A stretch of 45,855 bases of DNA, from the sequence record SRR2962707_1709. One strand, given 5' to 3'. Shown piece by piece: positions 1 to 15,516 of this stretch. The notes below the pieces were generated by a model, which saw nothing but the letters and a program-made list of their open reading frames with translations, was not told the DNA's origin and ran no database searches. The position numbers and the translations under genes are program-made. Position 1 is the first letter of the stretch; every line of letters begins with the position of its first letter.

Positions 1-177
1 CACAACAATAACTGTCCACAGGACCTAGAGGTCTCCTCAACGCAGAAGGCGATGCGGCAAGGCGGCTTTCACAGCCAGCCGTTGATTTCCGCCTGCATGT
101 AGATACAGTCTTTGTCTGATGCCGGCTGCGTGAAATTGCAGTATAGTCATCGTGATGATCTGCGAAGGGAGGATCCC

Positions 178-1101
178 GTGGAAACAAGTCCCGGCCAGGC
201 AAGAACATTGCGGTTTGAAGAAGTGTGTTACGGCAAGTCCGTACGCACTCCGGGCGGCCCTTTGCATGAAAGCGCTCTGTATGGAGTGAACTCCGTTACC
301 CCGGGCATCACCAATCCGCTGCGCTATATACCTGCAAATTTTCTCGGAAACACAAATCTCGCGTCGAGCATGATCGACCCCGCGTTCGCCGGGCGTGGCG
401 CATTGGTTGTCAAGGCAGTCGATGAAGGGCTGGCGATCATGCGCATGCGCTACCGAGCCGAGGCAGGCGAGGGGGAAAGCGGCCGCCAGTTCCTGCTGTC
501 GCGAACCTTGCTGCTGCCCGACATCCAGCACTGGCACGAAATTCCGCCCGGTCTGTTCTCCTGGTGCGAGCAGCGACTGGAGGCGCAGCCTTTCGTTTTC
601 GATCAGCCTAGCTCGCCGCCGGTGCGCTCAGTCGACCTTCCACCATTTCAGGCTCGGGATGTGAGCTGGTTCGACAATCTCAGCCAGCATCGGCAAATCC
701 AGCTGGGGTCGGCCTTCCAGGCAATCACCAGGCGGGTTGGTTGGACCGTGTCCGGAATGGTGGCGGAATCGGAGAAGCAAAGGCCTGCCGCTCTGATTGC
801 TGCCGATCTTGATGTCATGTCCTCGCTGCCCAGAAAATTCCCTCTCAGGAATGGCGACACTGACCAGTTCATCCTGAACCTGGGTCTCGAGCCGTTGCTG
901 ACCCCGGGTGCGGTCAGCTATTTTCCCGGCCATCGCGGCAGCGCGATAGAAGCGCCTGACTTGCATGCGCTGCGCATAGCCATCATCAGCAGTGAAGAAA
1001 ATCAGCCTGCCGAACCGTCCGTCAAACAAACCCAGGGGACGTCCGATAGCCTTGATCGCAGGATTGGCGCCGAGCCGATCCCATTGAAGTGGCTTTCATA
1101 A
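178..1101 (+). CDS. Hypothetical protein with putative GAP1-N-like (GTPase-associated protein 1 N-terminal) domain
   Basis: ORF 112..1101. GTG at 178 follows a strong RBS (AGGGAGG). The N-terminal pattern FEEVCYGKS...YGVNSVTPGI and the later GESGRQFLLSRTLLL resemble the GAP1-N signature (QxxYxS...GFqxxaxSpG...GRxgNffaHxlv). Domain call by eye. Confidence 0.55.
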   Translation: METSPGQARTLRFEEVCYGKSVRTPGGPLHESALYGVNSVTPGITNPLRYIPANFLGNTNLASSMIDPAFAGRGALVVKAVDEGLAIMRMRYRAEAGEGESGRQFLLSRTLLLPDIQHWHEIPPGLFSWCEQRLEAQPFVFDQPSSPPVRSVDLPPFQARDVSWFDNLSQHRQIQLGSAFQAITRRVGWTVSGMVAESEKQRPAALIAADLDVMSSLPRKFPLRNGDTDQFILNLGLEPLLTPGAVSYFPGHRGSAIEAPDLHALRIAIISSEENQPAEPSVKQTQGTSDSLDRRIGAEPIPLKWLS

Positions 1102-1234
1102 CAAATTCAGATAATTGGTTGCATTTTAATCATTTACTTTACTGCCACTCAACGAACTGCCAGCTGTTGCGCTAAGGATTCATAAACTATATCGTTCGAG
1201 TTCGTATCGGGTAAGTACTAGCGTTGGGTCTTTA

Positions 1235-4200
1235 ATGTTGGATTGGGATCTAAGTAACCCTAAGAAAACGCTTTTGCGTTTAGAGAATTGCTGTGTGATC
1301 TGTGATCTTGGCAAATTCTCTCGCGTAGTTACGCTCTCCAATTCGACTTTGGCTGCCGACGAAACGCTTAAGATATCTGTTGCAGGATACATCGAAGAAG
1401 CGCCTTGGCTTAATGCAAGCCTTCGTGATGTAGGCAGTGGCGATTCTATACTTCAGTGTGAATTGGGCAAAGCCAAGAATATTGATCTGGTCCTTGAGTG
1501 CTCACGGGAGCCGAGCGAGGACGAGATCGACGATGCATCCCGTGACCAGTTTACACTCTCCATCACGCTGCAAACAAAACGCGCAGACGGTCAGTCGCAA
1601 AACCTCAAGGTAGAGCTTGTCGGTCCGCGTTTGCAGACGCTGAAATGGCAGCCGCCGGTGGTGCAGACCAGGCAGGCAGCGATCCCTGAGCTCAGCCGGG
1701 TCGAAAAGCAGGAAAACACCGATGTTGATCTGTTCACGATCAACATAAAGCAGCCCGTCGCCCGGCTGGAATACGGCGGCGCACCCACCAACCTGATTGT
1801 CTCGGGCCGCTTGAGCTGTCGCGTTGACGATGAAATCAGGGATGTGACGGCCAACATCACCATGGGGCCGGCCGTTGCCCGCTCCACTGCGGGGATGGCC
1901 TGCGAGCTGCGCGCCGGCGATGAAGTGTCCATTCCCTGCATCGTGTCGATCAATGAAATATTCGAGGCCGCCGATAGCGCCGATACCCTGCAGATGCAGT
2001 TCGACTGGAGCTGTATTTTCAGCGACGAAACCCAGGCGCCTCTCTCAGGCGCCTATGATTTTGACCTGCAGTTGAGACAGGGAGAGATCCTGGCTCTGAA
2101 GTATCGTGACGCGTCGGCTGTGCCCAACATGATCCGCAGCGAAACCCCCTTTGTCGAGCGCTTCCCGCTGGAGTTTTCCGTGCCGATTTCCGGCGGCGGG
2201 GTTCAGTTCGAGCTTGGCGATACCATCGAGTTCGATGTCGTGAGCCTGGATGACAGCTGGGATGTAGTTGCCCACGCGCATATCTTGCCCGAAGGCGAAA
2301 AAACGGTGCTGGCCAGCCGCGAAGATTTCAAGCTGGTGCAGGACATCGAGGTTGATCAGACCAGTGGCGGGAAAATTCAGATCCCGTTCCACAACACTGT
2401 TTTGGACGAAACCGGCGACACCGACCGCTATCAGCTGTTCATCCGCTTTGAAGCCAGGCGGCTGAAAATCAGGGCAGGCATGTCATTGGTGGCCGAAGAC
2501 GATCTGTTCGAGCACAAATACGGCATGGTGGCGGTCGATATCGTGCTGCGCCAGCGCGACCCCAAATATCTGATTTGCCTGGATTACGGCGCATCGGCCA
2601 TTGCAGCCTGGTTCGGCAGGGTGGAGCGAAATCTGGCGCGCCAGCTGATCCCGCTGGGCTCCTACGCCTACAGCCTTGCCGGCGCACACTCGGAATATGA
2701 TCCGAACAAGAAGCGCTGGCAGAACGTCCTGATCCCGTCCACCATCGGCCTCAACCCGGCAAAACATGTGCGCTCGCGCAAGGCGCCGTTGTCCTATGGC
2801 AATCTCTCTTATGTCGGCACCAAGCTGCAGGCTGCGGAAAAGAGAATGGCGCGGTTTGGCCGGACCTATGACGTCTCCATTCCGGTCGATCGTGATTTCG
2901 TCACCGACGGCGAAGCCTCGGCTTATCTTGAACTTCAAACGCTCGTCATCCCGGATCTCAAGCGCATGCTGATGAACTCGGAGCCGGGATTCAAATACCG
3001 TATCAAGCAATCGGTGATCGAGCGCACAGCCAATGGTTTGCAGGCAACGCGTGAAATCAACCTCGCGGCACTGACCAAGGACGCCTTCCACGAACTGGGC
3101 TCCTACATGGTTCCCAACGCGCTGTTTTATGCGCATGACCAGCTCGATGGCCCGATTGTCAGCGAGTTCGGCGACGAGCGCTTTGACCAATGGCTTGAGT
3201 GTGCCGACAATGACGTTCAGGTGGTGGTCACCCATCCCAGCGGCATCGCGCATCACAAGCGGGATCTGTACAGGAATGCTGCCAGATCCTTTGCGCAAGG
3301 CCTGACCGGAACCCAGGATGCGCGCGCCGCACGTGAGCCCAAGCTGATCCCTGAAGCCTTGGCCGCAGCCTATTTCGGCATTTCCCGCTCGCAGGGCAGC
3401 CGTGAGGAAACAGAAGTTTTTGCCTGCATCGATATCGGCGCCAGCACCGTGGATGCCAGCCTGATCGAAGTGAAGATGCGGCACGACAGCATCGAAAGCT
3501 GGAAGGTCTTTGCGCATTTCGGAGCCACCATCGGCGGCGCCAACCTGGATGAGGCGCTGCTCGCCGTTCTGATCCAGAACCTGCGTGAGCTGTTCTCCTC
3601 AACCGAGCCGGTCTTCGAGGATCTTGAACTCGACCATCGTTTCTTGCGTGACGAGGCTCTCAAGACAGCGCTTCTGCCGCGCATTCAGGAAGCCAAGCGG
3701 GCGCTGTCGGAAACGTTGATGCGCTATGCAGGCACCGACAACGAGTATCGCTGGGCTGAAGAGGGGGACGGCAGTTCCTTCGCGGTGGAACTCAATGACA
3801 TTCTGCGCAGTGCATCGCCCGGACAGCCGCTCAGCGAGCGTGACACAGCCATTCCCGGCTCGAATGAAAAGGTGCAGCTGCGCGTCAGGACGACCGAGAC
3901 CGGCGGACAGGCCGTCTGGATCGAGATTTCGCCGGATCTGCTCGATGCCAATGATGAGATCACCAATCCGGCGCGCAGCAATCCGCAAACGGTCGCCCGG
4001 ACCCTTGGCTATGCTGTTCCGGCGATGCTGATCAGGGAAGCACGGCGCTTGAATTTGCGCGATCCGCAATGGGTTGTGACCGGTCGTGCCAGCCTTTGGC
4101 CTTCGATCTTCACAGGCATCGGGCGCACCGCGCAACTGCTTGGTCAGGCGCGCGACATGGCGCCTTCAAGGCCGTTCAGTCCCGACGATATGAAGAACGC

Positions 4201-4633
4201 CACGGTCTATGGCGCCGCCCGTCTGGCAACCTCCGGACTGGAAGTGACAGACGGCGCGGATCACTCCTATGCGCTGGTGCTGCATGATGACGGGCGCGGT
4301 GTTGTCTCGGAGATCGAGTATCTCGATACGCGCACGCGCTCTGAAGGCAACAAGAGCGTCCGCTTCCTGCCCAATCGCTGGCTCAGCCGCGTCCTGCCGG
4401 GGCTGGATGATGTAGGCAGCAAAAACGACATCACCCGCGACGAGATTGTTCGCCTGTTCGGCATCTTCGGTCAGAAGGTGGTTGTCGATCAGTCTCAGGT
4501 CAAGCCTGGCGGTTTGGCCGGAGGGCAGGATCAGCACGTCGAGATTTCCTGGAAGCGCAGGAACTCCGATGTCGAATTCACTGTCGGCGACATCATCGTT
4601 CGTCAACCCCGAAGTCGCTTGGCGGGAACCTAG
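1235..4633 (+). CDS. Large divergent Hsp70/actin-fold (ASKHA) ATPase with ~440-aa beta-rich N-terminal extension
   Basis: Ordered ASKHA motifs: phosphate-1 ICLDYGAS, VVVTHPS, connect-1 LIPEALAAAY, phosphate-2 CIDIGASTVD, IGGANLDEALL, IQEAKRALS, adenosine VVTGRASLWP, connect-2 KNATVYGAA. No canonical DnaK substrate-binding domain. Start uncertain (weak RBS). Confidence 0.8.
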   Translation: MLDWDLSNPKKTLLRLENCCVICDLGKFSRVVTLSNSTLAADETLKISVAGYIEEAPWLNASLRDVGSGDSILQCELGKAKNIDLVLECSREPSEDEIDDASRDQFTLSITLQTKRADGQSQNLKVELVGPRLQTLKWQPPVVQTRQAAIPELSRVEKQENTDVDLFTINIKQPVARLEYGGAPTNLIVSGRLSCRVDDEIRDVTANITMGPAVARSTAGMACELRAGDEVSIPCIVSINEIFEAADSADTLQMQFDWSCIFSDETQAPLSGAYDFDLQLRQGEILALKYRDASAVPNMIRSETPFVERFPLEFSVPISGGGVQFELGDTIEFDVVSLDDSWDVVAHAHILPEGEKTVLASREDFKLVQDIEVDQTSGGKIQIPFHNTVLDETGDTDRYQLFIRFEARRLKIRAGMSLVAEDDLFEHKYGMVAVDIVLRQRDPKYLICLDYGASAIAAWFGRVERNLARQLIPLGSYAYSLAGAHSEYDPNKKRWQNVLIPSTIGLNPAKHVRSRKAPLSYGNLSYVGTKLQAAEKRMARFGRTYDVSIPVDRDFVTDGEASAYLELQTLVIPDLKRMLMNSEPGFKYRIKQSVIERTANGLQATREINLAALTKDAFHELGSYMVPNALFYAHDQLDGPIVSEFGDERFDQWLECADNDVQVVVTHPSGIAHHKRDLYRNAARSFAQGLTGTQDARAAREPKLIPEALAAAYFGISRSQGSREETEVFACIDIGASTVDASLIEVKMRHDSIESWKVFAHFGATIGGANLDEALLAVLIQNLRELFSSTEPVFEDLELDHRFLRDEALKTALLPRIQEAKRALSETLMRYAGTDNEYRWAEEGDGSSFAVELNDILRSASPGQPLSERDTAIPGSNEKVQLRVRTTETGGQAVWIEISPDLLDANDEITNPARSNPQTVARTLGYAVPAMLIREARRLNLRDPQWVVTGRASLWPSIFTGIGRTAQLLGQARDMAPSRPFSPDDMKNATVYGAARLATSGLEVTDGADHSYALVLHDDGRGVVSEIEYLDTRTRSEGNKSVRFLPNRWLSRVLPGLDDVGSKNDITRDEIVRLFGIFGQKVVVDQSQVKPGGLAGGQDQHVEISWKRRNSDVEFTVGDIIVRQPRSRLAGT

Positions 4634-4643
4634 AGGACGCAAG

Positions 4644-5462
4644 ATGGCGGTGATTGGTATCGAGTTCACATCCGCAATTGCACAGGTAATCTTCATTGTG
4701 CTGCTCGCCGCTGTCGTCGGGACGGCGATCTGGTTGATCCGGCGGCTCCGCCAGACCGAAACGCAACTGGCGTCGATCCGGCGGGAGAACGGCAAACTGC
4801 GCAATGAAATTGCCAATATTACCGGCTGGACCACCAATGGACGCCTTCCCGAAGACTGGCAGGAGCGGTTGCGCAACGACAAGGCCGTGGCCGGAAACGT
4901 GCCGCCGCCGGTTGGCGCCGAGGTGCCCGGCGAGCTTGTGCTCATGGCAGCGCACCACGCCCTGGCTTCGATCGAGCCGCCACACTTTGCCTCAAGCGAC
5001 AGTGCCGAGGAAGTCAGCCGCGCCCACCAGCGCAACATCGAGCTGATCGAGGGGCTGGCTGCCGAGCGTATTGATCCGCTGCCGGCTCTCGCCAACGGCG
5101 ACATGGACAAGCTTTTTTGCTTCTGGCGGCGCCTGGAGGCCTATTTTCCGGACCGCGCTGAAACCGATGCCTATGGCTTGGCGGCCTACGCTGTCCTTGA
5201 TCTGTTCAAGCGCCGCCAGGTTCAGGTGATCGCGCCACGGCCCTTGTCTGTCGAAAGCGTCAAGAACTGTGTTTTCACCACTGATGACAGCGAAAAACTC
5301 AGGGATATTTCCCGCATCCGCACAGCGGCTTTTGCGGCAAGCTCCCGCTTTGCCAATCCCAAGGGGGGAGAAGAGCTGGTGATCGATTGTGAGCGCCCGG
5401 GCTGGAATGGGCCGAATGGCCGCAAAAGCCCCCGAATTCTGATTCTGGACCGGTCATGGTAG
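4644..5462 (+). CDS. Membrane-anchored coiled-coil protein with GrpE-like C-terminus
   Basis: ATG 4644 with GAGGA RBS. N-terminal TM (IAQVIFIVLLAAVVGTAIWLI), short coiled coil, helical middle, and C-terminal VIDCERPGWNGPNGRKSPRILIL resembling the GrpE beta-domain (VvevlrpGYxlxgRvlRpAxVvV). Confidence 0.55.
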   Translation: MAVIGIEFTSAIAQVIFIVLLAAVVGTAIWLIRRLRQTETQLASIRRENGKLRNEIANITGWTTNGRLPEDWQERLRNDKAVAGNVPPPVGAEVPGELVLMAAHHALASIEPPHFASSDSAEEVSRAHQRNIELIEGLAAERIDPLPALANGDMDKLFCFWRRLEAYFPDRAETDAYGLAAYAVLDLFKRRQVQVIAPRPLSVESVKNCVFTTDDSEKLRDISRIRTAAFAASSRFANPKGGEELVIDCERPGWNGPNGRKSPRILILDRSW

Positions 5463-5477
5463 GGCGCGGATGCATTC

Positions 5478-6989
5478 ATGACACTCGGTAACCCGGTTCG
5501 CTTCACTGATGAGACTGACCGCCCGGTCATCATGATTCCGGTGAAGCTGGACTTGCGCGACAACCAGGCTTTCTGGCGCCGCAATGTGTTCGGTATCCCC
5601 AAGCGCGGGCTGCTGGGCTGGTTGTTCTCCAAGGGCTCCAAGGCGGCGCGGGATTTCCCCTGGGTGGTTGGAGGCAACCCCGACCCGAGCAAGAGAACAG
5701 GCCTGTTTCAGGTCTCGCGCGGCTCGGTTGATGAAGTTCTCTACAACATCACCGACAAGCTGGTCATCGGAACTGCCAATGGCAGCGAGGTGGTCGAGGT
5801 GGCCTTTCAGCATCTCACCTTTGTTTCGGGTGCCGGCGGTGTCTGTGACACGGCTTCCGAAATGGGGCTTGAGGAGAGAATATCGGAAAGCCTGGGGTCG
5901 ACCCTGAAAGGCTATTTCGATCCGACAATCGGCATCAGGGTGGACTGCATGGTCAACCCGTCGCTGCCGGCCAACCAGCTCAACATGTATCTTGGCCAGG
6001 GCGTGTTCGTGCCCCGGCGTGGCGAGCGCCCGATCGGCTGGATCCGCTATTATCCCGACCCTTCCATGCGGGAGGATTTCAACCAGCCGCAATTGCTCGA
6101 TGGCCGGCCCGCAGGTCTTTACAAGGGACAGGGCGGACTGGCGATCGGCATCGGCGAAGGGCTTTTGCACTCGCAAATTGATCTCGGCTCCGACGAGGAA
6201 GTGCAATCGCCGTTCATGTTCATCAACAAGGAAGCGGTGCTTACCCCGGCCAATGAAGAGCCAAGGGCCCGCGGCGTCGATGCCCGCCTTTCATTCTGCC
6301 GCGGACAGGGCAATGAGCCCGTTCCGACGCAGGTGGCGCGCACCGACGAGCAGTGTGATGTCGCCTGGAAGATCGACTTTGTCGGCACCGCCCAGATTCC
6401 CGGACGGCTTGAACTCTGCGTCGATTCCCGCAAGTCGCGGCTGCACTGGAAACCGACCAATGGCTGCAACGCCGCCATAAGCTCTTTGCTGTTCGACTTG
6501 CGCGACTTTTCCCATCGCGACATCGAGCGGGTGTGGATTGATCTCGACCGGGACAACATCCTGACAGCCTACGCGCTTCAGGTCGCACGGGTCTCCCTGG
6601 TCTGGGACTGCGAGAACGAAGAGCAATATGTCTACGAATGGGGCCAGACCGGCGCGCCGTTCAAGACGCCGGGCAGCGTCGGGCTGAAATGCCGGACCAT
6701 CGAAAACAACATGATCGAGGTCGGCCGCGCCGATGGCGAGCCTTTCGGTTATCTCGAATTACCGGAAGTGCCGGAGAAGGTGATCTTCTCGGACACCTTC
6801 CAGTCTTTCAGCGGCTATCATCTCGACTGGCTCGATCAGTGTGGGCGCATCTCCTTTGGCGACACGGTTTTGTCGCTTGGCGAGGCCTATGCGGAAAAAT
6901 GCTCCGGCATGCCGCTCGCCAGATTTGAGCCGGGCGAGACCAAGAAGGTCGTCGGTCCGCTAGTCCTCACCCCCTACGAGGGAGGCTGA
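5478..6989 (+). CDS. Hypothetical protein, 503 aa, soluble; possible FhaA-N (DUF3662)-like N-terminal domain
   Basis: Long ORF with high-GC codon usage, tightly packed in the operon (15 bp after the previous stop, 4 bp before the next start). No TM segment. Weak by-eye similarity to FhaA N-terminal domain at aa ~80-175. Confidence 0.6.
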   Translation: MTLGNPVRFTDETDRPVIMIPVKLDLRDNQAFWRRNVFGIPKRGLLGWLFSKGSKAARDFPWVVGGNPDPSKRTGLFQVSRGSVDEVLYNITDKLVIGTANGSEVVEVAFQHLTFVSGAGGVCDTASEMGLEERISESLGSTLKGYFDPTIGIRVDCMVNPSLPANQLNMYLGQGVFVPRRGERPIGWIRYYPDPSMREDFNQPQLLDGRPAGLYKGQGGLAIGIGEGLLHSQIDLGSDEEVQSPFMFINKEAVLTPANEEPRARGVDARLSFCRGQGNEPVPTQVARTDEQCDVAWKIDFVGTAQIPGRLELCVDSRKSRLHWKPTNGCNAAISSLLFDLRDFSHRDIERVWIDLDRDNILTAYALQVARVSLVWDCENEEQYVYEWGQTGAPFKTPGSVGLKCRTIENNMIEVGRADGEPFGYLELPEVPEKVIFSDTFQSFSGYHLDWLDQCGRISFGDTVLSLGEAYAEKCSGMPLARFEPGETKKVVGPLVLTPYEGG

Positions 6990-6993
6990 GGCG

Positions 6994-9834
6994 ATGAAAG
7001 CCAGACTGTTCAGCGCGCGCCATTTTCAGATTGTTGTGCTGTCCCTGCTTGCTGGCATTCTCTATCTCGGGGCTCACTTCTTCGTCGACACCTTCAGGAT
7101 CAACCGTATCTGGATGGAGCGCGTCGAGATTCCGAGCGCGCTCGCCTTCGATGCCACCACATTTGATTTTCTGGTCGATGGCGGCGCGATCTGGCCGGTT
7201 CGCGATGGTGTGTCCGTCGCTCTCGGACATGCCCCTTGCAACACGCTCGCCATGCGCTCGCCCGAGACGGTTATCCTGGCCTCCGGCCCAGCCGGTGACG
7301 CTGGCCGCAAATATGTCCGCGAACTGTGTGAATCGGCGCAGGGCGAGCGCATCCGCGAACAGGTTGCCAATTTCAATCAAAGCTACCGGATTGTCTCTGT
7401 CTCCGACAATCGCGAGGCCGACAGCGCGCTGAAATCCGACCAGGGCGTGGCCTGCGCCGATGGTGTCAGCACAGCCAGGCTGTTCGTGCCCGCCCGCTGC
7501 CTGCCCAACAAATGGGAAGCGACCATTGCTGCTGACGGCAGGGCGGTTCAGTCGATCACCACGGCAACGATCTCCCAGTTCGACTATGCCTTTCTTGCCA
7601 GCGAGACGGAGAGCTTCTTCGGCGACTGGAAAGTCATCACCCCGGTCATCGACACGCAAACCGGTGAATCGGGCCAGTACAGGTTCAGGACCACCATGAC
7701 CTTCGGCGAAATGCCGGTGAGCATTCGCACCATCGGGGCTGTGCGGTCAGTCTCGATCAACGGCACGCCGCTGAACATCGATCCCGCCACCGGGCCTGAC
7801 GAGGTTGCCGAAGCAGCGGGTCTGAAGCAACTGGCCTCGCTGGCGGTCTATTGTGCCGATGACACCCGGTCGATTGGTCACCGCGTACGGTGCGAAGGCG
7901 AAAGCCCGCGTGGGCGGCCGACAGGGACGCAGATATTCCTGTCTGAGGCGAAGGGCCGAGCCGTCGATCTGGAATTGCTCATTGAACCGTCGATCCGGAT
8001 TGATCGCGGGCTCAGGCGCTATCTCGCCAATCGTCAGAAAGGCATGCCGGAAATTCCCGACCAGAAGGTTTCGCTGGGTTTCGGGCGCATTCGCGTCGCC
8101 TGTGAACTGGCCGGGTTCAAGATCGGTAAATCAGCCACCGGCGGAGCCGACACAGGCTGCGAGCTGAGCTGGAATGTGCCGGGCAATCAGAGGGTTGAAA
8201 GCCAATCCGAGCCCTTGACCGGTCTGGTTTTGGCCGATCTGCCGGTTCTGGATTCGCAAGGCGCGCTGACCCAGAAAGCCTTCCAACTGGGGCTTGGCGG
8301 TTTGCTTGGGCTGGGCACCGGGGATTCCGGCTCTGTTGCTGCCGCACTGACCCGGACGGAGGAGGGCGAAAATCCCTCGCTGACCCTGATCCCCGATTAC
8401 CAGGAAAAGGCGCTTGCAGCACTGGCGCAAAACTACACTTGCCCGAAAGACGAGGAACGTTGCGACCGGCGCGCCGATCTGGTCATTCTTGATGCGGACG
8501 GCGAGGATGCAGGCAATGTGCTGGCCGTTGCCAGCCTGCCGCAACCACGCACCGGAATGTCCTCGTGGGATATCGAAACACTTGAGCTGACCGCATCCGC
8601 CAAGAGCCCGCTGGCTGCCTATGCCTGGCGCAATTACGATCTGCGCGGCACGCCGGGCTCCGCCTTCAAGCTGGTCACCGCGCTGGCGGCCAGCCAGCAT
8701 GTTCTAGATACTGGCGATACGGCGCTTGAAAGCGTGCTGCTTGGTACTTCGACGCCGCTGCAGATCGCCGATCTGTTTGGCATCGCCGCGACGAGGCCCT
8801 CCTTCAATGGCCGCTGCAAGCCCGACTACGAGGAACGCGATCCGAAGAAGATGAATGCCCTGCCGATCCTGGGTGCGAGAGACAGGATCGTTTTCTGCAT
8901 GGGCAATTCGGCATCATCCGCCGGTGTCCGCAGTGGAATAAGCCATATCCTGGAAACCGGTGTCGACAGCGGTTGCGGTGATGCCCGGACCCCGAGAGCC
9001 GGTATGTGCGAAGCGATCAAGCGTTCCTCGAACCTGTTTTTCGCGGGCATTGCGATGTATCTGGATGCCGACAAGCTGCTCGATCCGGAAACCGGCTTCG
9101 AGCACACCAGGCTGGTGCCAGATCTCATTTTGGCCAGGGAAGCCGAACGGTTTTTCCCGGCTGCCCGCAGCTCGGAAGCCATCAGCCGCAAGAGCGCGCT
9201 CGACATTCTCGATGTGAACTATCCCGCCACCGGGCGCGGCCGTGCCAGCCCGATGATCGTTGAAGCTGGCCTTCCCGTGCCGCCGGGAGAGCCGCGGCGG
9301 CTGAGACTGGCGCGCGGCGGTATCGGGCTCTCCGTCAGCGCCAGCCCGCTTGCCATGGCCTCGGTCGCAGCCTCCGTCGCCACCGGCAAGATTGTCCGGC
9401 CCCACCTTGTGCCGCGGGCGGAGCGTGGCCCGTCGGATGATCCTATCGAAGGCGAACCACTGCTGGTCGCCGCACCGGAAAAACAGGCGCTGGCCGATAA
9501 ATTTCTGCGCGAATTACGTGACGGCATGGGCGCCGTGATTCGGAAACAGGGGGGCACCTCGCGCAGTGCTTTTGCCAAGATTCCGGCAGAGCTTCGCAAC
9601 GCGATCTATGCAAAGACCGGCACCGCGCCGGTGTTTGGCCATTCGAATTCGCCGCCCGACGGGCGCTATGCATCGTGGCTGGTCGGCTATGTCGATCCGC
9701 AGCCGGGGCTTCCCGGCATTGACCAGAAAATTGCTTTCGCGTGCCGCGTGGCATTTTCCCCGAGCTACGGCGGATCGGTCTGCGGGCCGATTGTCCGCGA
9801 CTTTCTCCTCGCCTTGTACGAGGCGGAAAAATGA
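6994..9834 (+). CDS. Class B-like penicillin-binding protein (transpeptidase), 946 aa, atypical N-terminal region
   Basis: N-terminal TM anchor. Motif 1 TPGS-A-F-KLVTA (SxxK, 8659-8670), motif 2 KRSSN (SxN, 9025-9033), motif 3 AKTGTA (9613-9621). Also GxVLAVASLP and IGLSVSASPLAMASVAASVATGKIVRPHL, typical of PBP2/PbpA transpeptidase domains. Confidence 0.9.
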   Translation: MKARLFSARHFQIVVLSLLAGILYLGAHFFVDTFRINRIWMERVEIPSALAFDATTFDFLVDGGAIWPVRDGVSVALGHAPCNTLAMRSPETVILASGPAGDAGRKYVRELCESAQGERIREQVANFNQSYRIVSVSDNREADSALKSDQGVACADGVSTARLFVPARCLPNKWEATIAADGRAVQSITTATISQFDYAFLASETESFFGDWKVITPVIDTQTGESGQYRFRTTMTFGEMPVSIRTIGAVRSVSINGTPLNIDPATGPDEVAEAAGLKQLASLAVYCADDTRSIGHRVRCEGESPRGRPTGTQIFLSEAKGRAVDLELLIEPSIRIDRGLRRYLANRQKGMPEIPDQKVSLGFGRIRVACELAGFKIGKSATGGADTGCELSWNVPGNQRVESQSEPLTGLVLADLPVLDSQGALTQKAFQLGLGGLLGLGTGDSGSVAAALTRTEEGENPSLTLIPDYQEKALAALAQNYTCPKDEERCDRRADLVILDADGEDAGNVLAVASLPQPRTGMSSWDIETLELTASAKSPLAAYAWRNYDLRGTPGSAFKLVTALAASQHVLDTGDTALESVLLGTSTPLQIADLFGIAATRPSFNGRCKPDYEERDPKKMNALPILGARDRIVFCMGNSASSAGVRSGISHILETGVDSGCGDARTPRAGMCEAIKRSSNLFFAGIAMYLDADKLLDPETGFEHTRLVPDLILAREAERFFPAARSSEAISRKSALDILDVNYPATGRGRASPMIVEAGLPVPPGEPRRLRLARGGIGLSVSASPLAMASVAASVATGKIVRPHLVPRAERGPSDDPIEGEPLLVAAPEKQALADKFLRELRDGMGAVIRKQGGTSRSAFAKIPAELRNAIYAKTGTAPVFGHSNSPPDGRYASWLVGYVDPQPGLPGIDQKIAFACRVAFSPSYGGSVCGPIVRDFLLALYEAEK

Positions 9835-12800
9835 AAATCATCCGCTCCATCAGTTCGGTCTTCGGCATCGTTATGCGCCTCGTCTTCGGGCTTGCCACAC
9901 TGGCCGTGATCTTCTGGTGGATGTTCGCGCTTCAAACTGCAGCCGAAAAGGCGCCGCAGTTCAGTTCGCTCAAGGATCTGAAGCTGACGATACCGCGCGG
10001 CGAGGAAGTCGTGCTCGGTCGTGCGGAATTGCTCCAGCCGGCAGGCGCGCGCTCGGCGGAGCTGCAGCATGTGCGCCTGCGCGCGACGGATGAAGGTCAA
10101 CTGCTGATCAGCCGGGTGGCGGAGCTGCGCGGCCTCAATGTCGAGTTCGGTGGCAAGACCGAAGAGGGCTCGAGCGAGCGCTATGAGATTTCCCGCCAAA
10201 AGGGCGCCTACACTCTGCTCTCGGCCGGTTCGCAGTTTGTAAAGATCGCTGTGAGGGATGACGACGGCATCGAATTTGCCGTCGAAGACTGGACAGGCAA
10301 GGCCTCGACCGCGGTTGTCTACCGCAATGGCGCGGAAATCCTTGTCGACGGGAAGCCCGCGAAGGGATGTTACGAGCAGAGTACCGCGAGCTGGGTTGTC
10401 TCTCAGGCCAACAAGCTGAGCCAGGACATCACCGGCAGGCTATCCAATCTTGTCGAGCCGTTTGGGCTGGGTGATCTGTTGCGCAGAAAAGGCCGGGCCA
10501 CAATCGCGGTCCTGGGCGGCGATGTGGATTGCACGATGCACAGCTATGCATTGGTGGCGATGCCGCGCGCCAATCCGGAACTGGAATTCATTGTCCGCAA
10601 GAACCTCTCTGACGACCGCCTGTTTGTGTCGATCTACCGCGATGCCCAACTGGTTCCCGTCAGTTTCGAGACCTGGCTCAACGGTATGCGGATCCGCCAG
10701 AACTATGGCCGCACAGGCATCGAGATCCCGGTGGCCTCCACCGCAGAACTCGAAAATCCGCCGGTCACGCATTTTACCGCCGGCAAGACCCGCTACGTGA
10801 TTGAAACGACGCCCACTCCTGAAGGCGGATGGGACGTTCACATCGCGCCCAACCGCCGGGTTGCGCTGTTTGATCGCAGCGTCTGCGCCCAGGCAGCCGA
10901 GGCGGTTGAGGAAACCGCATCGGCTGAAGATTGCCCGCCACCGCTCGACAGCTCGCCCAACGTGTTGCCCAAGGGCGCGAGCATCGAGGTTTCGCAATTG
11001 CAGCTCCCCTCGACGCTCGACCGCTTGTTTGTCAGCAGCCCGGAAGGGCTTGTGAGTGCCGAAATTCTGGCCCGGGGTGCCGCGATCTGCCTGTGCCTGC
11101 TGATCGTGCTGGCAGTCCCGGGCGCCACGATCTGGCGCGCCAATGGCTCCATTGTGCGGGCCGCGTTCCTCGTCCTGGCGGGCGGCTTTGTGCTGATCCT
11201 TGCCTTGCTGCCCGACCTGGTTGCGATCGCCAGGATGATCACCGATGTCCCCGATGCATCGCGCTGGCTTTTCTATGGACTGGGCGCCATGTGGGCCTGC
11301 GCCACAATTGTCGTGATGCTCGACCGCTCCGGTGGCGCCAGCCTCTGCGCATTCTGGCTTGTTCTCACGGGCATTATCGCCATCGGCTCTATTTCCATGT
11401 TCAGCCTCAGCGCCGAAGGCCCCAACACCGACTGGGAGCGCTTCTTCATCAAGCACAAGCTCGTGGTGCTCGACATTTTGCCGCTGTTCGTGATGGCCTT
11501 GACGATTGTCTCCCCGACGGCGCTCAAGCTCAGAATCGGCAATGACTTTGCCGGACGCCCTTCCTTCTTTTCCCCGACGATGTGGCTTCTGGCCATCGTC
11601 TTTGCCCTGTTCGCGGCCTGGTTCTTCCTGGGCAACCAGACCGGGCTCGGCGGCTCGATCCAGCCTGTAGAGGCGGGCAAGTTTGCCATTGTGGTGCTGT
11701 TGGGCGCGGCCCTGGCGCAATGGTTGATCCGCGCCCGGCTGCTGGCCCAGGCCTGGTTCGGCATCACGCTGATTGCGGTCATTCTCTCCACGCTGTTCCT
11801 GATTGCGCTGCTGTTCGTCCCTGCGGTCAAATCCGACTATTCGCCCTTGATCATCATTGGCTCGGCCACGGCGATTACCGCGGTTGTCGGTGTCATGGCG
11901 ATCGGCTGGCGGATCCGCGAAGAAGAATTCGACGACCTGAGGGACATCAAACGGATTCCGCTCTCTTACGTACCGTCGATCCAGGACTACCGCATGAGTT
12001 ATGCTCAGTTCGCTCTGCTGCTTGTCGTGTTCGCGGCCATTATCACGGCGCCGCTGCTCGCACTTGACCGCGCCAGGGCCGTCATTGATGTGGTGCTGGG
12101 GGCGCCGGAGTATTTGATCGCTGCAGCCCTGGTGCTGCTTCTGCTCATCGTCATGCTGATCCGGACGCTGGCCATTCCCCGCGCGGTGTTCATACTGCTG
12201 CTGGGCTTGCCGCTGGCGCTGATGGGCACATGGGCGCTGATGCGCGGCGAGGTGCTGATCCTGGCGCTTGCCGTGACCTGCCTGGGCGTCATCACATTCG
12301 CCGTTGCCATCCGAAATCGCGTCAACTGGACGCTGGCGCGTGTGGCAATTGCAGCACCGCTGATCGCACTGGTCATGGCTGTGGCATTGAGGGACGTGCC
12401 GGCCAAGGCCGGGCTCGGGGTGCAGGACTGGTCCTGGTTCTATGGTCCCGACAAGCAGATCACGGAGCTGGAAAAAGTGCTGGGCGAGGGGCGCCGGTTG
12501 CCGGTCGAAAGGTTGATGAGCTGGGCCGATCTGCGCTTTGGCCGCACCGGCGGATATGAGGCGCCGCGGCAACTGCTGCTGCGCGACATGAATTTTCATG
12601 TGCTGAGGTCACGCGCCACGCTGGCAAATGCGCCGTGCGGGATGAGTGCAGAGCTGACCGCAGCGCCTTACAACATTGGTTATGCCGTCGGCTGGCTGGG
12701 CGAGACAATCTCCCAGGGGCTTGGCATTTCCTGCCCGGATGAGGCGCAGACAGCGGAAACGCTTCGCTGCACGCCCTCGACGCTGAAGGGGCCGGTCAGG

Positions 12801-13226
12801 CCGCATTGTGTGCCGGTCGTCCAGAGCGACTTTGCGGCGACCTACATTGTGACCCGGCACGGCAACGCGGCGGCCACCTTGCTGATTGCGCTGCAGGCCT
12901 GTTTCATCTTTCTGGTCATCAGCCTTTACCTGAAGCTCCAGGCCAAACGCTCACGCGATCCGGTCGAGACGGGCGCCGATCAGGCTCTGGCCTGCATCGC
13001 GCTGGGCGCCGGCATGCTGTTCCTGATGCAGTGGATCCTGGCCTGGTCGAATGCATTCGGGCTGTTGCCCGTCATGGGGCAGCCGATGACGTGGCTATCG
13101 GCAGGAACAAGTCATCATCTATTCATGGCAATACCGGCAGCGCTGGTGCTCCTCGTGGCAGTTCGCCTTGCAGGAATGAAAGCACCCGTGTTAACAATTC
13201 GTATACCACCAAGACGCCGGGGTTAG
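9831..13226 (+). CDS. SEDS-family (FtsW/RodA/SpoVE) peptidoglycan glycosyltransferase, extended, with N-terminal FHA-like domain
   Basis: ATG 9831 overlaps the PBP stop (ATGA). SEDS motifs: GGSIQPVEAGK (QPSE.K), KSDYSP (PDLGT), VPVVQSDF (LPEAHTDF with the catalytic Asp), GLLPVMGQPMTWLSAGTS (GLLPxTGxPLPFxSYGGS). Many TM helices. The N-terminal VVLGRAEL...AELQHVRL...GQLLISRV is FHA-like. Confidence 0.88.
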   Translation: MKIIRSISSVFGIVMRLVFGLATLAVIFWWMFALQTAAEKAPQFSSLKDLKLTIPRGEEVVLGRAELLQPAGARSAELQHVRLRATDEGQLLISRVAELRGLNVEFGGKTEEGSSERYEISRQKGAYTLLSAGSQFVKIAVRDDDGIEFAVEDWTGKASTAVVYRNGAEILVDGKPAKGCYEQSTASWVVSQANKLSQDITGRLSNLVEPFGLGDLLRRKGRATIAVLGGDVDCTMHSYALVAMPRANPELEFIVRKNLSDDRLFVSIYRDAQLVPVSFETWLNGMRIRQNYGRTGIEIPVASTAELENPPVTHFTAGKTRYVIETTPTPEGGWDVHIAPNRRVALFDRSVCAQAAEAVEETASAEDCPPPLDSSPNVLPKGASIEVSQLQLPSTLDRLFVSSPEGLVSAEILARGAAICLCLLIVLAVPGATIWRANGSIVRAAFLVLAGGFVLILALLPDLVAIARMITDVPDASRWLFYGLGAMWACATIVVMLDRSGGASLCAFWLVLTGIIAIGSISMFSLSAEGPNTDWERFFIKHKLVVLDILPLFVMALTIVSPTALKLRIGNDFAGRPSFFSPTMWLLAIVFALFAAWFFLGNQTGLGGSIQPVEAGKFAIVVLLGAALAQWLIRARLLAQAWFGITLIAVILSTLFLIALLFVPAVKSDYSPLIIIGSATAITAVVGVMAIGWRIREEEFDDLRDIKRIPLSYVPSIQDYRMSYAQFALLLVVFAAIITAPLLALDRARAVIDVVLGAPEYLIAAALVLLLLIVMLIRTLAIPRAVFILLLGLPLALMGTWALMRGEVLILALAVTCLGVITFAVAIRNRVNWTLARVAIAAPLIALVMAVALRDVPAKAGLGVQDWSWFYGPDKQITELEKVLGEGRRLPVERLMSWADLRFGRTGGYEAPRQLLLRDMNFHVLRSRATLANAPCGMSAELTAAPYNIGYAVGWLGETISQGLGISCPDEAQTAETLRCTPSTLKGPVRPHCVPVVQSDFAATYIVTRHGNAAATLLIALQACFIFLVISLYLKLQAKRSRDPVETGADQALACIALGAGMLFLMQWILAWSNAFGLLPVMGQPMTWLSAGTSHHLFMAIPAALVLLVAVRLAGMKAPVLTIRIPPRRRG

Positions 13227-13264
13227 TCACCAGTAAAGTTTGAGTAAAGGGAGCAGGCGTTGAA

Positions 13265-15493
13265 ATGGACAAGAAAAACAACGACGGGAATGCGATCCTA
13301 AGTACGACCCGCCTGAAGCAGGGCTTCATCATTGTCTTTGCTGCAGTAGCCTTTTTCATGACTGCATATGCGACAAGCGGCGGCGCGCGAATATTCATGA
13401 CCGAGACCTATGCCTGGGTCGGCATCACCGCGCTTGCTGTCGGATTTCTGGCCTTTACATCGCTGGTGCTTGGCGACGGTATATCCTCCAATCGCCTCAC
13501 CCAGATCGCCCTTGTGACGCCGTTTTATCTGGTCGCGGTGGCGATATGCTGGATTTCCTCCTTTGCCTCCTACCATCAGCAATTCCTCAGCGTTGGCGGA
13601 TCCGATCTGGCCAATGCCGAGACCAATCTGCGGCAGATGGGGCTCTATGCTCACGACATCAATCAGGAAATGAACGAGCGGTATCAGGACAAGAAGGCCG
13701 CCTTGCTGGGCAATGAAGCGCTCAAGGATTACTCGACAAGGATGGGCGCTCTCACCGACGAGCTGCGCGATCGCGACAAGAAAAAGGAAATCGCTTCCGA
13801 GCTGCAGACGCTGATCGAGACCAAGAAAATCGAGTTGCGAAACCGGCAGGGTCAGCTGAAAACCCAGCAGGGCGAAACCGAACGCGGGCTGGTCAAGCTC
13901 ACCAAGCAGATCGAAAGCCTTGAAACGCAGGTTGCCGCAAAACAAACCCGGGTTGCCGCGACTGCCGAGCTTGTCGACAAGCTCGAAATCGCTCTGAAGA
14001 CCGAGGAAGGCGAACCCGGTGTGTCACAGGAGAGCAAGGCTATCCTGCTGGCCGATGGCCTGGCCAGCCAGCTCACCGACGACCCTGCTTGCAATCGCCG
14101 ACGCCGCGCCGGCACCGGCGGCGGACTGAGAGGTACCTGCTACAACGCGCTGGGGGAAAAACTCGCCGATTCCCGCGCCCAGCTTGCCGGGTTGAAGCAA
14201 GAACACGAGAGCGCTCGCAACCAGTTGCTGACAGCAAACCAGCAGCAAGCCGCGCTGCAGGCGGATGTCATGACCGTGGCCCAGGAACTCGACGCGACCA
14301 CCAGCCAGATCAGTGAAGATGTTGCTTCGGGCTATACGCTCGACGCCGACGGTTTCCTGCAAAGCGTCAACGCCTTCATCGATACGCCGTCACAGACCAC
14401 ATTCAAGCAGACCGCGAGCTATTGCCAGGTGGTCACCGAAGTGCTGGCCGATCTCAAATCGGTATCCGACCTTCCCGCTTGCGAGCCGCAAGCCTTGATG
14501 GCGGTGTTCCGGCAGATCGACACGCTCGATGCCGAGCAGGTCGCTTTTGCCCAGACATGCGACGAGACCGACCGGCGCAAGCAGATCATCGACAATCTGC
14601 GCAGCGAGATGCTGGATGTGTCGGGCCCTGAGCGGCTCAAGCCCATCACCCGCGCCTACGACCAGATGCGGGCTGAGGTGCTGGAGACGTGTCTTCTGGC
14701 CGCCGAACAGCGGGGCCTCGAAGGCAGTCCGTACCGCGAGGATCTGGCTAGCCTTTATGACCGGATCAACCCGTCACAGGATGCGATCAGCAAGGCCATC
14801 GGCAAGGTTGAAGCGCTGTTCAATGGAACCGCATCGGCACGCGATTATTTCCCGGCGCTGTTGGCGCTGTTGCAGGAACTCTCATTGCTGCTTTCGAAGC
14901 TGTTCTGGGACGCCAATGTCGTGTCGAAATCGTCAAAACGCAAAGATGATCTGGACACCGCGGATCTTGATCTCGATGCAAAACCGGACGACCCGGATTC
15001 AGTGCTGGCCGCCAAGAACGTGATCCTCAGCACGGTGTTTGACAAGCAGGGCTACCTGTTGCCGCAGCTCTATGACGAGGATTATTCCCATGAGATGCGC
15101 AGCCAGATGCGGCTGATCGTCGACAATCTGTTCCGCAAGCAGATGGCCAGGAAAACCAGCCGTGGCATCTTGATCTCGGAACAGGGGCTGGCGGAAGTGG
15201 GCCGCCGCATCCGACGCCACAATGAAACTGCCGAAAACCGGGCAACGACACCCGAAGCCACCGCCGCTGAAACGGCTGATGTCGCTGAAAATGCGCATTC
15301 AGTCACAGCGTCAGGCGAAACTCCGGCCGGGAACTTTACCGAGGACAAGCCGGCCGCAAAGCTTGCCGCCGCGCAACCCGGCCTGACCGCTTCAAGCGCG
15401 GAAGTGCTTGACGAGGTAGACGCCAACGCCACCCAGCGCCCGCGCCGCCGCAGGCCGGTGGTGGTCAGGCCCAATTTCCGGCGTGAAATCTAA
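13265..15493 (+). CDS. Membrane-anchored long coiled-coil protein (DUF4407-like)
   Basis: Three N-terminal TM helices, a ~400-aa heptad-rich coiled coil interrupted by EEGEPG...GTGGGLRGTCY (similar to the DUF4407 ExxG..TGxxGxGPxY hairpin), a C-terminal TM (YFPALLALLQELSLLL), then a cytoplasmic tail and low-complexity end. Confidence 0.65.
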   Translation: MDKKNNDGNAILSTTRLKQGFIIVFAAVAFFMTAYATSGGARIFMTETYAWVGITALAVGFLAFTSLVLGDGISSNRLTQIALVTPFYLVAVAICWISSFASYHQQFLSVGGSDLANAETNLRQMGLYAHDINQEMNERYQDKKAALLGNEALKDYSTRMGALTDELRDRDKKKEIASELQTLIETKKIELRNRQGQLKTQQGETERGLVKLTKQIESLETQVAAKQTRVAATAELVDKLEIALKTEEGEPGVSQESKAILLADGLASQLTDDPACNRRRRAGTGGGLRGTCYNALGEKLADSRAQLAGLKQEHESARNQLLTANQQQAALQADVMTVAQELDATTSQISEDVASGYTLDADGFLQSVNAFIDTPSQTTFKQTASYCQVVTEVLADLKSVSDLPACEPQALMAVFRQIDTLDAEQVAFAQTCDETDRRKQIIDNLRSEMLDVSGPERLKPITRAYDQMRAEVLETCLLAAEQRGLEGSPYREDLASLYDRINPSQDAISKAIGKVEALFNGTASARDYFPALLALLQELSLLLSKLFWDANVVSKSSKRKDDLDTADLDLDAKPDDPDSVLAAKNVILSTVFDKQGYLLPQLYDEDYSHEMRSQMRLIVDNLFRKQMARKTSRGILISEQGLAEVGRRIRRHNETAENRATTPEATAAETADVAENAHSVTASGETPAGNFTEDKPAAKLAAAQPGLTASSAEVLDEVDANATQRPRRRRPVVVRPNFRREI

Positions 15494-15516
15494 CATCCGG
15501 ATTGTCTGGAAATATC

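Follow-up and report, generated by a model that had tools for sequence, protein, structure and literature searches.

A 45,855-nucleotide stretch of DNA from sequence record SRR2962707_1709, which as a whole we call the window, carries a block of nine genes (positions 112 to 19279; g0 to g8 in order of position) that is defined by open reading frame (ORF) calls and by conservation across relatives. The best reading of this block is that it is a real, conserved and undescribed module in a host that lacks MreB, and that it encodes a sparsely scattered, Hsp70-linked variant of the synthase formed by a SEDS protein and a penicillin-binding protein that belongs to class B (bPBP). At most two of the nine genes match any curated family. 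With somewhat more belief than doubt, we view the module as an accessory envelope system built around a very divergent peptidoglycan synthase pair and controlled by an Hsp70-type ATPase, a function that we infer. Its analogy with MreBCD is only architectural.

The initial annotation of positions 1235 to 13226 had described an actin/Hsp70-fold ATPase (g1), a single-transmembrane coiled-coil protein (g2), an unknown gene (g3), a bPBP (g4) and a SEDS protein (g5), in an order that parallels mreB-mreC-mreD-pbp2-rodA. The five ORFs are present and the description is correct, with the starts of g2 and g5 now corrected. All five genes lie closely packed on the plus strand, separated by anything from a 4-nucleotide overlap to a 15-nucleotide gap. 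The conserved block adds four genes to the original five: an orphan of 329 residues (g0), a membrane coiled-coil protein (g6), a P-loop GTPase-like protein (g7) and an orphan with an ORF of 882 residues (g8).

The predicted g4-g5 synthase pair

The g4 gene (6994 to 9834, plus strand) encodes a bitopic penicillin-binding protein of 946 residues with a class-B-type transpeptidase domain, recognised by PF00905 (61 bits) and by its motifs. Between a transmembrane segment at residues 5 to 23 and the transpeptidase domain lies a periplasmic region of about 500 residues, in which seven cysteines are invariant. The catalytic motifs S556-x-x-K559, S678-S679-N680 and K874-T875-G876-T877 are invariant in six orthologues that reach down to 28% identity. 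When a profile of six g4 sequences is compared with the PDB, 15 rows score at E <= 0.001, and 14 of these are named penicillin-binding proteins or D,D-transpeptidases, including SpoVD, PBP3, PBP2/FtsI, MrdA and PBP2'. In the alignment with SpoVD, the PGSAFK of g4 falls on PGSTFK and its KTGTA on KTGTA. The PDB alignments also cover about 100 residues upstream of SxxK, which fall in the bPBP non-catalytic module, and the other periplasmic residues (roughly 420) have no assignment. By a transpeptidase domain that contains SxxK, SxN and KTG, g4 is predicted to belong with the class B enzymes. It is not a PBP2 (MrdA) equivalog (TIGR03423, score 55.9 bits, cut-off 455, coverage C-terminal only).

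The neighbouring g5 gene encodes a polytopic SEDS-like protein of 1131 residues (9831 to 13226, plus strand), recognised by PF01098, by hhalign and by its motifs. Its longest ORF runs from 9741 to 13226, and conservation begins at the ATG at 9831, which overlaps the g4 stop codon as ATGA. The two genes are predicted to be translationally coupled through this overlap. An N-terminal transmembrane segment precedes a periplasmic domain of about 370 residues, predicted to be beta-rich, and about 16 further hydrophobic segments (17 in total), which include a SEDS core with a long outer loop. Both g4 and g5 thus have a large, family-specific periplasmic domain at the N-terminal position where a recognisable pedestal normally sits.

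The match of g5 to PF01098 scores 28.3 bits against a cut-off of 26.4 and covers only the C-terminal third of the model (positions 245 to 351 of 356). Its orthologues in five Hoeflea genomes score 31.6 to 34.7 bits, and the orthologue in Cohaesibacter is undetected by this model at E <= 0.001. PF01098 is also precomputed for many members of the g5 family, and the source annotation of the family reads 'FtsW/RodA/SpoVE family'. Among 63 relatives of g5, none has SEDS and PBP parts joined in a single chain. g5 is not a RodA or FtsW equivalog (TIGR02210, 27.8 against 336.7 bits; TIGR02614, 22 against 337.5 bits).

Profile alignment by hhalign against 32 canonical alphaproteobacterial SEDS proteins gives E = 8.8e-5 (probability 60%) with a 6-sequence alignment of g5 and E = 5.1e-5 (probability 67%) with a 24-sequence alignment of its family. 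Both runs place PVVQSDF on PExxTDF, with D1000 on the TDF aspartate, and GLLPVMGQPMTWLSAGTS on the GxxPVxGxPLPxxSyGGS block. The aspartate of the TDF motif follows the large outer loop, and we take it to be the essential catalytic residue of SEDS proteins. Two further correspondences, QPVEaGKF on QPSExxK and RSRAxxA on QSKxAxG, occur in the same order as in SEDS proteins and are not significant singly. All of the aligned blocks are invariant within the g5 family, whose invariant motifs comprise QPVExGKF (611-618), SDYSP (668-672), PVVxxDF (995-1001) and GLLPxMGQxMxWxSA (1077-1091). Judged by these alignments, g5 keeps the SEDS signature blocks, including the TDF aspartate.

Two side observations concern the nucleotide sequence of this region. 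The AT skew drops to -0.23 at 11 to 13 kb, over the part of g5 that is rich in transmembrane segments. An antisense ORF of 719 residues lies inside g5 (10440 to 12599, minus strand), and further long antisense ORFs lie inside g1 and g4. These antisense frames look like by-products of GC-rich coding sequence and are not treated as genes.

The Hsp70-type ATPase and the other module proteins

The first gene of the original five, g1 (1235 to 4633, plus strand), encodes a cytoplasmic ATPase of 1132 residues without a transmembrane segment. It has no Pfam match at E <= 0.01 (PF00012 and SrfB included), no NCBIfam match and no meaningful PADLOC match. A profile of 13 g1 sequences compared with the PDB matches Hsp70 chains only (13 rows at E <= 10), with DnaK and mortalin at E-values from 3.6e-4, the best DnaK row, to 0.2. 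The AlphaFold2 (AF2) model of g1 (mean predicted local distance difference test, pLDDT, 85; predicted template modelling score, pTM, 0.72) has three parts, namely an all-beta region (1-440), a nucleotide-binding domain of the actin/Hsp70 fold (442-1003) and a small beta domain (1011-1124) that occupies the position of the Hsp70 substrate-binding domain. The model contains no helical lid of the Hsp70 kind.

Structural comparison bears out the actin-type fold of the initial annotation and, for the nucleotide-binding domain alone, gives nearly tied Z-scores for MreB and Hsp70. MreB, FtsA and ParM are missing from the 44 Foldseek rows listed for g1, of which 42 bear the name of an Hsp70-family chaperone and the other two are chains from ciliary central-pair entries. 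VIA re-alignment confirms an actin-fold nucleotide-binding domain, a fold that MreB and Hsp70 have in common. Hsp70 rows reach Z-scores of 20.8 to 22.9 with 340 to 437 residues aligned, and five MreB entries reach 20.8 to 21.1 on the nucleotide-binding domain (root mean square deviation 3.9 to 4.3, 299 to 318 residues), where rows within 1 Z count as tied. Because these scores are nearly tied, the nucleotide-binding fold alone cannot separate MreB from Hsp70. Several full-length Hsp70 rows extend to g1 residues 1094 to 1131 and so cover the C-terminal beta domain (389 to 437 residues aligned). The sequence signal and the domain that follows the modelled nucleotide-binding domain point to an Hsp70-type protein.

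Eleven residues of g1 (D450, G452, S454, K576, E707, D733, G735, T738, D740, G950 and R951) are invariant in 40 relatives of 19 to 43% identity, and the nucleotide site is predicted to be intact. Across the same relatives the ATPase part is conserved and the N-terminal 440 residues are barely conserved. Searched exhaustively with the g1 profile, 1.84 billion representative proteins yield 165 matches at E <= 0.001, of which 65 reach E <= 1e-30; most are 1100 to 1250 residues long. Pfam leaves 37 of the 40 relatives without a match and gives the other three sub-threshold or marginal Hsp70 matches. Many larger proteins (among P0094 and P0110-P0164, about 1560 to 1720 residues) match the g1 profile weakly in three stretches around residues 1070 to 1580, so that Hsp70-like domains of the g1 kind also occur at the C-terminal end of much larger proteins.

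The g2 gene (4644 to 5462, plus strand) encodes a bitopic membrane protein of 272 residues. Its longest ORF (4446 to 5462) begins inside g1, and conservation and the orthologous ORFs move the start to the ATG at 4644, which lies 10 nucleotides past the g1 stop codon with AGGA just upstream. The orthologous ORFs have the same start site and encode 271 to 281 residues, with 25 to 28% identity in Cohaesibacter and in a metagenome locus (L056). From the earlier description as a single-transmembrane coiled-coil protein, the one predicted transmembrane segment is retained. It follows an N-terminus of about 10 residues and precedes a basic helical stretch, with RRLR directly after the membrane segment, and a conserved domain of about 200 residues. 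This domain is probably cytoplasmic, because basic residues follow the transmembrane segment (the positive-inside rule). No Pfam or NCBIfam family matches g2, MreC (PF04085) included.

The next gene, g3 (5478 to 6989, plus strand), encodes a soluble orphan of 503 residues with no transmembrane or hydrophobic segment. It has no Pfam match (MreD, PF04093, included), no NCBIfam or PADLOC match and no usable Protein Atlas match. Its orthologues occupy the equivalent position in four distant loci (L071, L055, L056 and L113) at 25 to 31% identity. The earlier statement that no member of the gene set is an orthologue of MreB, MreC or MreD agrees with the Pfam and NCBIfam scans, which give no such match.

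Downstream of g5, g6 (13265 to 15493, plus strand) encodes a membrane protein of 742 residues in which three N-terminal hydrophobic segments precede a long coiled coil. Proteins at the g6 position occur in Cohaesibacter (820 residues), in L056 and in a divergent metagenome-assembled genome (G060). g6 is possibly DUF4407-like. It has no match to DUF4407 (PF14362) at E <= 0.1. The G060 counterpart reaches 26.1 bits over a stretch that is coiled coil, where the cut-off is 31.3.

A second system suggests that g1 and g6 may work together. A g1-profile search of the Hyphomicrobiales sample gives nine weak matches, and the eight that lie outside G060 appear to belong to this other system. Four loci in other Hyphomicrobiales (L072:10762-19333, L073, L074 and L075) carry a trio that consists of a gene for about 650 residues, an Hsp70-like g1 paralogue of about 1200 residues and a membrane coiled-coil gene of about 800 residues. 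The trio adjoins ORFs of the size of dnaK and dnaJ in all four loci inspected, and Pfam confirms DnaK and DnaJ in L072; no PBP or SEDS gene lies near the trio in L072 to L075. The 800-residue proteins score 12.5 to 26.4 bits against DUF4407, below threshold, and one of them matches g6 by blastp (E = 1e-5 over 484 residues). From sequence comparison, the pairing of an Hsp70-like ATPase with a DUF4407-like membrane coiled-coil protein therefore looks older than the module, in whose family the synthase genes would have joined it later. Since a g6 paralogue accompanies a g1 paralogue in the second system, g6 is the most likely membrane receptor or partner of g1. The g2 protein is another candidate partner.

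The g7 and g8 genes are divergently arranged. g7 (15622 to 16650, minus strand) encodes a GTPase-like P-loop NTPase of 342 residues, in which a Walker A motif (G..GKT) and D-x-P-G-E are invariant in three sequences down to 30% identity. It has no Pfam or PADLOC match, and its PDB profile retrieves only an ATP synthase P-loop at E = 2.1. g8 (16631 to 19279, plus strand) encodes a soluble orphan of about 860 to 880 residues with an uncertain start. It has no family match, and its PDB profile matches (E = 0.22 to 0.59) are not significant; one weak, non-significant match is to a DOCK10 exchange-factor domain (E = 0.29). Identity to g8 is 76% in another Hoeflea genome and 21 to 28% in Cohaesibacter, whose g8 and g7 homologues are likewise transcribed divergently. 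The two genes (15622 to 19279) stand head to head with starts that overlap or nearly touch, a pairing that Cohaesibacter keeps.

The first gene of the block, g0 (112 to 1101, plus strand), encodes a soluble orphan of 329 residues with no transmembrane segment and no Pfam, NCBIfam or PADLOC match. It lies directly upstream of g1 in all 16 full-length Hoeflea loci. The listed N-terminus is too long, because the orthologue in one Hoeflea locus (L009) has an in-frame stop near codon 10, and the true start probably lies about 10 to 25 codons downstream of the TTG at 112.

Conservation, distribution and host

Conservation of the gene order among homologous loci had been set beforehand as a test of the initial proposal, and the order is conserved. 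In 16 of 16 full-length Hoeflea loci, g0 to g6 are all present in the same order, with protein identities to the window of 54 to 98%. Ratios of nonsynonymous to synonymous substitution rates (dN/dS), calculated against two species, are 0.05 to 0.14 for g1, g3, g4, g5 and g6. The ratio for g0 is 0.07 against one species (L004), and its value against L009 is excluded because the listed start includes the in-frame stop of that locus. All measured genes (g1 and g3 to g6) are under purifying selection.

Four distant loci, with 21 to 35% protein identity to the window, keep the core order. One metagenome locus (L056) encodes the ATPase, proteins of 263 and 499 residues, a PBP of 955 residues, a SEDS protein of 1100 residues and then a protein of at least 484 residues. 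A second (L055) encodes the ATPase, a g2-like gene, a protein of 494 residues, a PBP of 963 residues and a SEDS protein of 1274 residues; the longest ORF of its g2-like gene (557 residues) overlaps the ATPase ORF, and its C-terminal part weakly matches g2. All nine genes are present in Cohaesibacter gelatinilyticus, where proteins of 1189, 281, 521, 972, 1054 and 820 residues are followed by the homologues of g8 (minus strand), g7 and g0. Here the g0 homologue (27% identical) has been relocated next to g7, so that the g7 homologue lies beside those of both g8 and g0. In G060, one contig encodes a g3-like protein of 622 residues, a PBP of 1161 residues, a SEDS protein of 1318 residues and a coiled-coil protein of 701 residues, and the ATPase (1156 residues) is on a separate small contig. 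Seven further pairs of g1 and g5 relatives agree in the length of their longest contig (78086, 23377, 91320, 40529, 17114, 26605 and 20322) and so appear to share contigs.

The distribution of the module is patchy. At E <= 1e-30 the g1 profile detects 17 of 32 Hoeflea species genomes (one of them as a contig-end fragment), and the remaining 15 lack the module. Strong g1 matches occur in 2 of 401 sampled Hyphomicrobiales and strong g4 matches in 3 of 401 (the same two and G060), and g1 is absent from all 400 other sampled Alphaproteobacteria. Further relatives of g1 or g5 are known by source name from Rhizobium sp. SG_E_25_P2, Puniceibacterium sediminis, Gymnodinialimonas sp., Methylobacterium aquaticum and Rhodoblastus sp. 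With carriers limited to 17 of 32 Hoeflea species, 2 to 3 of 401 sampled Hyphomicrobiales and none of the 400 others, the module cannot be what the lineage generally uses for elongation. One weak g4-profile match (G097) is a canonical mreB-linked PBP2 and does not belong to the module family.

The genomic context also varies. A lipoate-ligase gene and a tRNA-Leu(GAG) gene lie directly upstream of the module in one Hoeflea clade (L011-L014; the tRNA at L012:8565-8649, upstream of g0), and transporter and dehydrogenase genes lie upstream in the clade of the window (L001). These two contexts hint that the block moved or inserted more than once. In Cohaesibacter, an IS-type integrase with an rve domain (L071:4110-4910) is situated between an upstream ORF of 329 residues and the ATPase gene; that ORF has the length of g0 and no tblastn similarity to it. 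Among plasmids there is no near-identical match to positions 1 to 20000 of the window and no tblastn match to g1, and viral contigs contain no member of the g1 family. In five Hoeflea genomes without the module, the flanking markers are far apart or on different contigs, and no simple insertion or deletion site can be recognised. The overall pattern is that of an accessory, occasionally transferred module and not of a lineage-wide housekeeping machine.

The host is a marine Hoeflea bacterium, since both the close g1 homologues and their loci come from this genus, and the earlier expectation of a host within Hyphomicrobiales was correct. The 17 g1 loci among species-representative genomes belong to 15 Hoeflea, one uncultured Rhizobiaceae bacterium and one Alphaproteobacteria bacterium (the fragment). 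The expectation that this host would lack an elongasome also agrees with its gene content. In five Hoeflea genomes the best matches to the MreB model PF06723 score 60.8 to 61.8 bits at model positions 76 to 317, in open frames of about 650 residues. A bona fide DnaK gives the same pattern (66.4 bits, positions 81 to 316). True MreB scores 484 to 508 bits over positions 2 to 326 in each of five other alphaproteobacterial genomes that served as controls. The best matches in Cohaesibacter and G060 reach 45.7 and 19 bits. A true MreB is missing from all seven tested genomes that carry the module, although G060 is incomplete and its lack of one is weak evidence.

The five Hoeflea genomes have one canonical SEDS protein each (260 to 269 bits) in addition to that of the module. 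In the six module-bearing genomes tested, this single canonical protein is FtsW, and no second one (RodA) is found. Two canonical SEDS proteins occur in 38 of 41 sampled alphaproteobacterial genomes, or in 37 of 40 if the unpublished genome G445 is left out. The hosts keep normal FtsW and FtsI elsewhere in the genome. Rhizobiales are reported to lack the Rod complex (PMC8546619) and Hyphomicrobiales to lack MrdA and RodA (PMC12516126).

From about 19.7 kb onward the window contains ordinary catabolic and transport genes, including GcvT, flavin amine oxidases, TetR, ABC transporters, a Rieske oxygenase and sugar kinases. Right after the module (19755 to 25782) are genes for a GcvT-type aminomethyltransferase, two flavin amine-oxidase-like proteins, a BetI-type TetR regulator and a methyltransferase, which together look like a catabolic cluster for methylated amines or betaine. 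The nine-gene block is not distinct from its flanks in GC content, and a scan for promoters and terminators gives counts that are not above those of shuffled sequence. A search of sequencing runs lists 18, all of them DNA metagenomes and none with half of the sampled words; no RNA run is listed.

Proposed function and comparison with known systems

If the pair is a functional synthase, g5 would polymerise lipid II and g4 would cross-link the resulting strands at a particular place or time. The g1 protein may be an ATP-driven switch or clamp and not an MreB-like track. Through ATP binding and hydrolysis, it could bind and release cytoplasmic parts of g6, g2 or g5, and would in this way control how the synthase is assembled, where it is placed or how active it is. 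The g7 and g8 proteins may add a nucleotide switch based on a GTPase. Because the module is missing from about half of the Hoeflea species and is rare elsewhere, its task would be specialised or conditional, such as the building of a particular cell form or pole structure or the repair of the envelope, rather than routine elongation. A more speculative extension, which we would sooner doubt than accept but hold to be a serious possibility, is that the module represents a fourth, undescribed class of SEDS-bPBP synthase beside the elongasome, the divisome and the spore-cortex machine. Its organiser would then be an Hsp70-type ATPase with a DUF4407-like partner and a GTPase switch, not an actin or tubulin filament, and it would build a specialised part of the wall in MreB-less, polar-growing Hyphomicrobiales.

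Several observations weigh against an Hsp70-controlled peptidoglycan synthase. The evidence that assigns g5 to the SEDS family consists of a Pfam score slightly above the cut-off, hhalign probabilities of 60 to 67% and motif blocks that occur in order. The AF2 model of g5, from a nine-sequence alignment, is poor (pLDDT 59, and below 50 in the membrane core). Foldseek with this model retrieves FtsW (8p1u_A) only at rank 44 (E = 0.23, probability 0.98, target TM-score 0.51); it gives no match at E <= 0.001, and its other rows look like noise. The g5 profile retrieves nothing from the PDB at E <= 1. No pedestal domain is detected in either g4 or g5 (in g4, Pfam does not detect PF03717 at E <= 0.01). 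The nucleotide-binding domain of g1 superposes on MreB (Z 21) almost as well as on Hsp70 (22 to 23), and the modelled fold would be compatible with a filament-forming role. A conflict system would also be in keeping with the patchy distribution, with an N-terminal g1 domain that varies and with the presence of a GTPase.

The possible alternative elongasome of the initial annotation would require that g1 polymerise on the membrane as MreB does and guide g5 and g4 during lateral or polar elongation, in a lineage that has lost MreBCD, RodA and PBP2. The order of ATPase, bitopic protein, unknown gene, bPBP and SEDS protein that suggested this arrangement is real and conserved. The tested hosts lack MreB and have a single canonical SEDS protein, in keeping with the reported absence of the Rod complex from Rhizobiales (PMC8546619, PMC12516126). 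The MreB superpositions (Z 20.8 to 21.1 over 299 to 318 residues) are also within about 2 Z of the best Hsp70 rows. However, g1 has 1132 residues with two extra domains, its PDB profile finds Hsp70 only, and MreB, FtsA and ParM are missing from its 44 listed Foldseek rows. With g2 probably cytoplasmic and g3 soluble, neither is an analogue of MreC or MreD. The parallel with mreBCD-mrdAB consequently survives for the general design and the gene order and fails as a one-to-one correspondence, given an Hsp70-like g1, a g2 domain that probably faces the cytoplasm, a soluble g3 and four extra genes. The module is absent from 15 of 32 Hoeflea species genomes and found in about 3 of 401 members of the order, and so sparse a presence marks an accessory machine and not the elongasome of the lineage. 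By source name, relatives also occur in Rhodobacterales (Puniceibacterium, Gymnodinialimonas) and in Methylobacterium, groups that usually have MreB. We consider this alternative unlikely.

Some of the same features could belong to a system that deals with conflict or stress, such as one that defends against phage or repairs the envelope in an emergency. The Hsp70-like ATPase and the GTPase would then be sensors of an insult, to which the PBP and SEDS proteins would respond by remodelling or thickening the wall. In favour of such a system are the sparse, patchy distribution of the module within one genus and across orders, the differing contexts in two Hoeflea clades (with tRNA-Leu upstream in one), the IS integrase beside the Cohaesibacter module, the poorly conserved 440 N-terminal residues of g1 next to a conserved ATPase part, and a GTPase-like gene. 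However, PADLOC with 10 proteins gives only 13.7 to 18.1 bits (PDC-M61B, LmuB and JetC; E = 1.5e-4 to 4.5e-3), and the LmuB and JetC matches are weak, coiled-coil-type matches in g6. The module contains no nuclease, protease, toxin or other usual effector, its neighbours are ordinary transport and catabolic genes, and it is not found on plasmids or viral contigs. All measured genes are, moreover, under steady purifying selection across species. A conflict system thus seems improbable as well.

Least probable, in our estimate, is that the two enzymes no longer make peptidoglycan, so that g5 would polymerise or flip another lipid-linked glycan or g4 would be a sensor of D-Ala-D-Ala or beta-lactams that signals to the ATPase and GTPase. 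Scores far below the PBP2 and RodA equivalog cut-offs, and large novel periplasmic domains and extra g5 membrane segments that could serve other substrates or sensing, would suit such a change. Against it, the catalytic motifs of the two enzyme families are without exception invariant at 27 to 33% identity, the solved proteins most closely related to g4 are functional class B PBPs, and the SEDS and bPBP genes are kept adjacent and apparently coupled like those of known synthase pairs.

An accessory peptidoglycan synthase under the control of an Hsp70-type ATPase would bear on wall synthesis more generally. At the core of bacterial wall building are SEDS-bPBP pairs, which are also major antibiotic targets. 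To our knowledge, every well-studied pair has a cytoskeletal element to steer it, either MreB or the combination of FtsZ and FtsA. Were a conserved pair connected instead with an ATPase of the Hsp70 type, a coiled-coil membrane protein and a GTPase, wall synthesis would have a new regulatory logic. It would also give a possible function to an unannotated family of Hsp70-like proteins of about 1100 to 1250 residues (65 clusters at E < 1e-30 among 1.84 billion representatives). Module hosts such as Hoeflea halophila, H. alexandrii and Cohaesibacter gelatinilyticus are cultivable, non-pathogenic marine bacteria without a Rod system, so the question is directly testable.

Literature searches found no description of the module. 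The closest precedent is a survey by Garcia-del Portillo et al. (2025), which in the passages considered reports pedestal-less transpeptidases in Hyphomicrobiales (PMC12516126). Those passages also describe SEDS proteins of excessive length whose outward-facing region is rich in beta-sheet, one of them in a neighbouring pair in Bosea lupini (PMC12516126). As described there, the Bosea protein is said to carry a recognisable pedestal, which is undetected in the module; this comparison is by description only (PMC12516126). Within the same portions of the source, Hoeflea goes unmentioned in the main text, and Hoeflea and Cohaesibacter appear only in a supplementary census table (PMC12516126). Neither an Hsp70-like partner nor a multi-gene module is described in these passages or in the portion of the supplement considered with them (PMC12516126).

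Among known systems, the elongasome (RodA-PBP2 with MreB, MreC, MreD and RodZ) resembles the module in that a SEDS protein stands beside a class-B-type transpeptidase with intact motifs, an actin-fold ATPase and a bitopic protein are encoded in the same operon, and the order of the five genes agrees. The ATPase of the module, however, is an Hsp70-type protein of 1132 residues, whereas MreB has 340. The conserved domain of MreC is periplasmic and MreD is a polytopic membrane protein, and the module contains neither a homologue nor a topological equivalent of either. The probable topology of g2 is the opposite of that of MreC and would be closer to that of RodZ or FtsN. No pedestal is detected, the SEDS protein, which has a periplasmic domain and membrane segments beyond the usual set, is three times as large as normal, four further genes are conserved, and the distribution is patchy and accessory.

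The Hsp70 chaperones (DnaK, BiP and HscA/HscC) provide the best sequence and Foldseek matches to g1, which shares with them the phosphate-1, phosphate-2 and adenosine motifs; some Hsp70 structures also align with the beta domain that follows, as far as residue 1127. In contrast to these chaperones, g1 has no PF00012 match at E <= 0.01, begins with 440 all-beta residues and lacks the helical lid. The module encodes no J-domain or GrpE partner, and its gene context is that of the membrane and wall.

The divisome core (FtsW-FtsI with FtsA and FtsN) differs from the module in that g1 is not FtsA, no homologue of FtsQLB or FtsN is encoded, and the dcw-cluster context is missing. It is nevertheless similar in general logic, since in both a cytoplasmic actin-fold ATPase could act through bitopic proteins on a SEDS-bPBP pair. 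This likeness serves as a working analogy for the way in which g1, together with g2 or g6, may gate g5 and g4.

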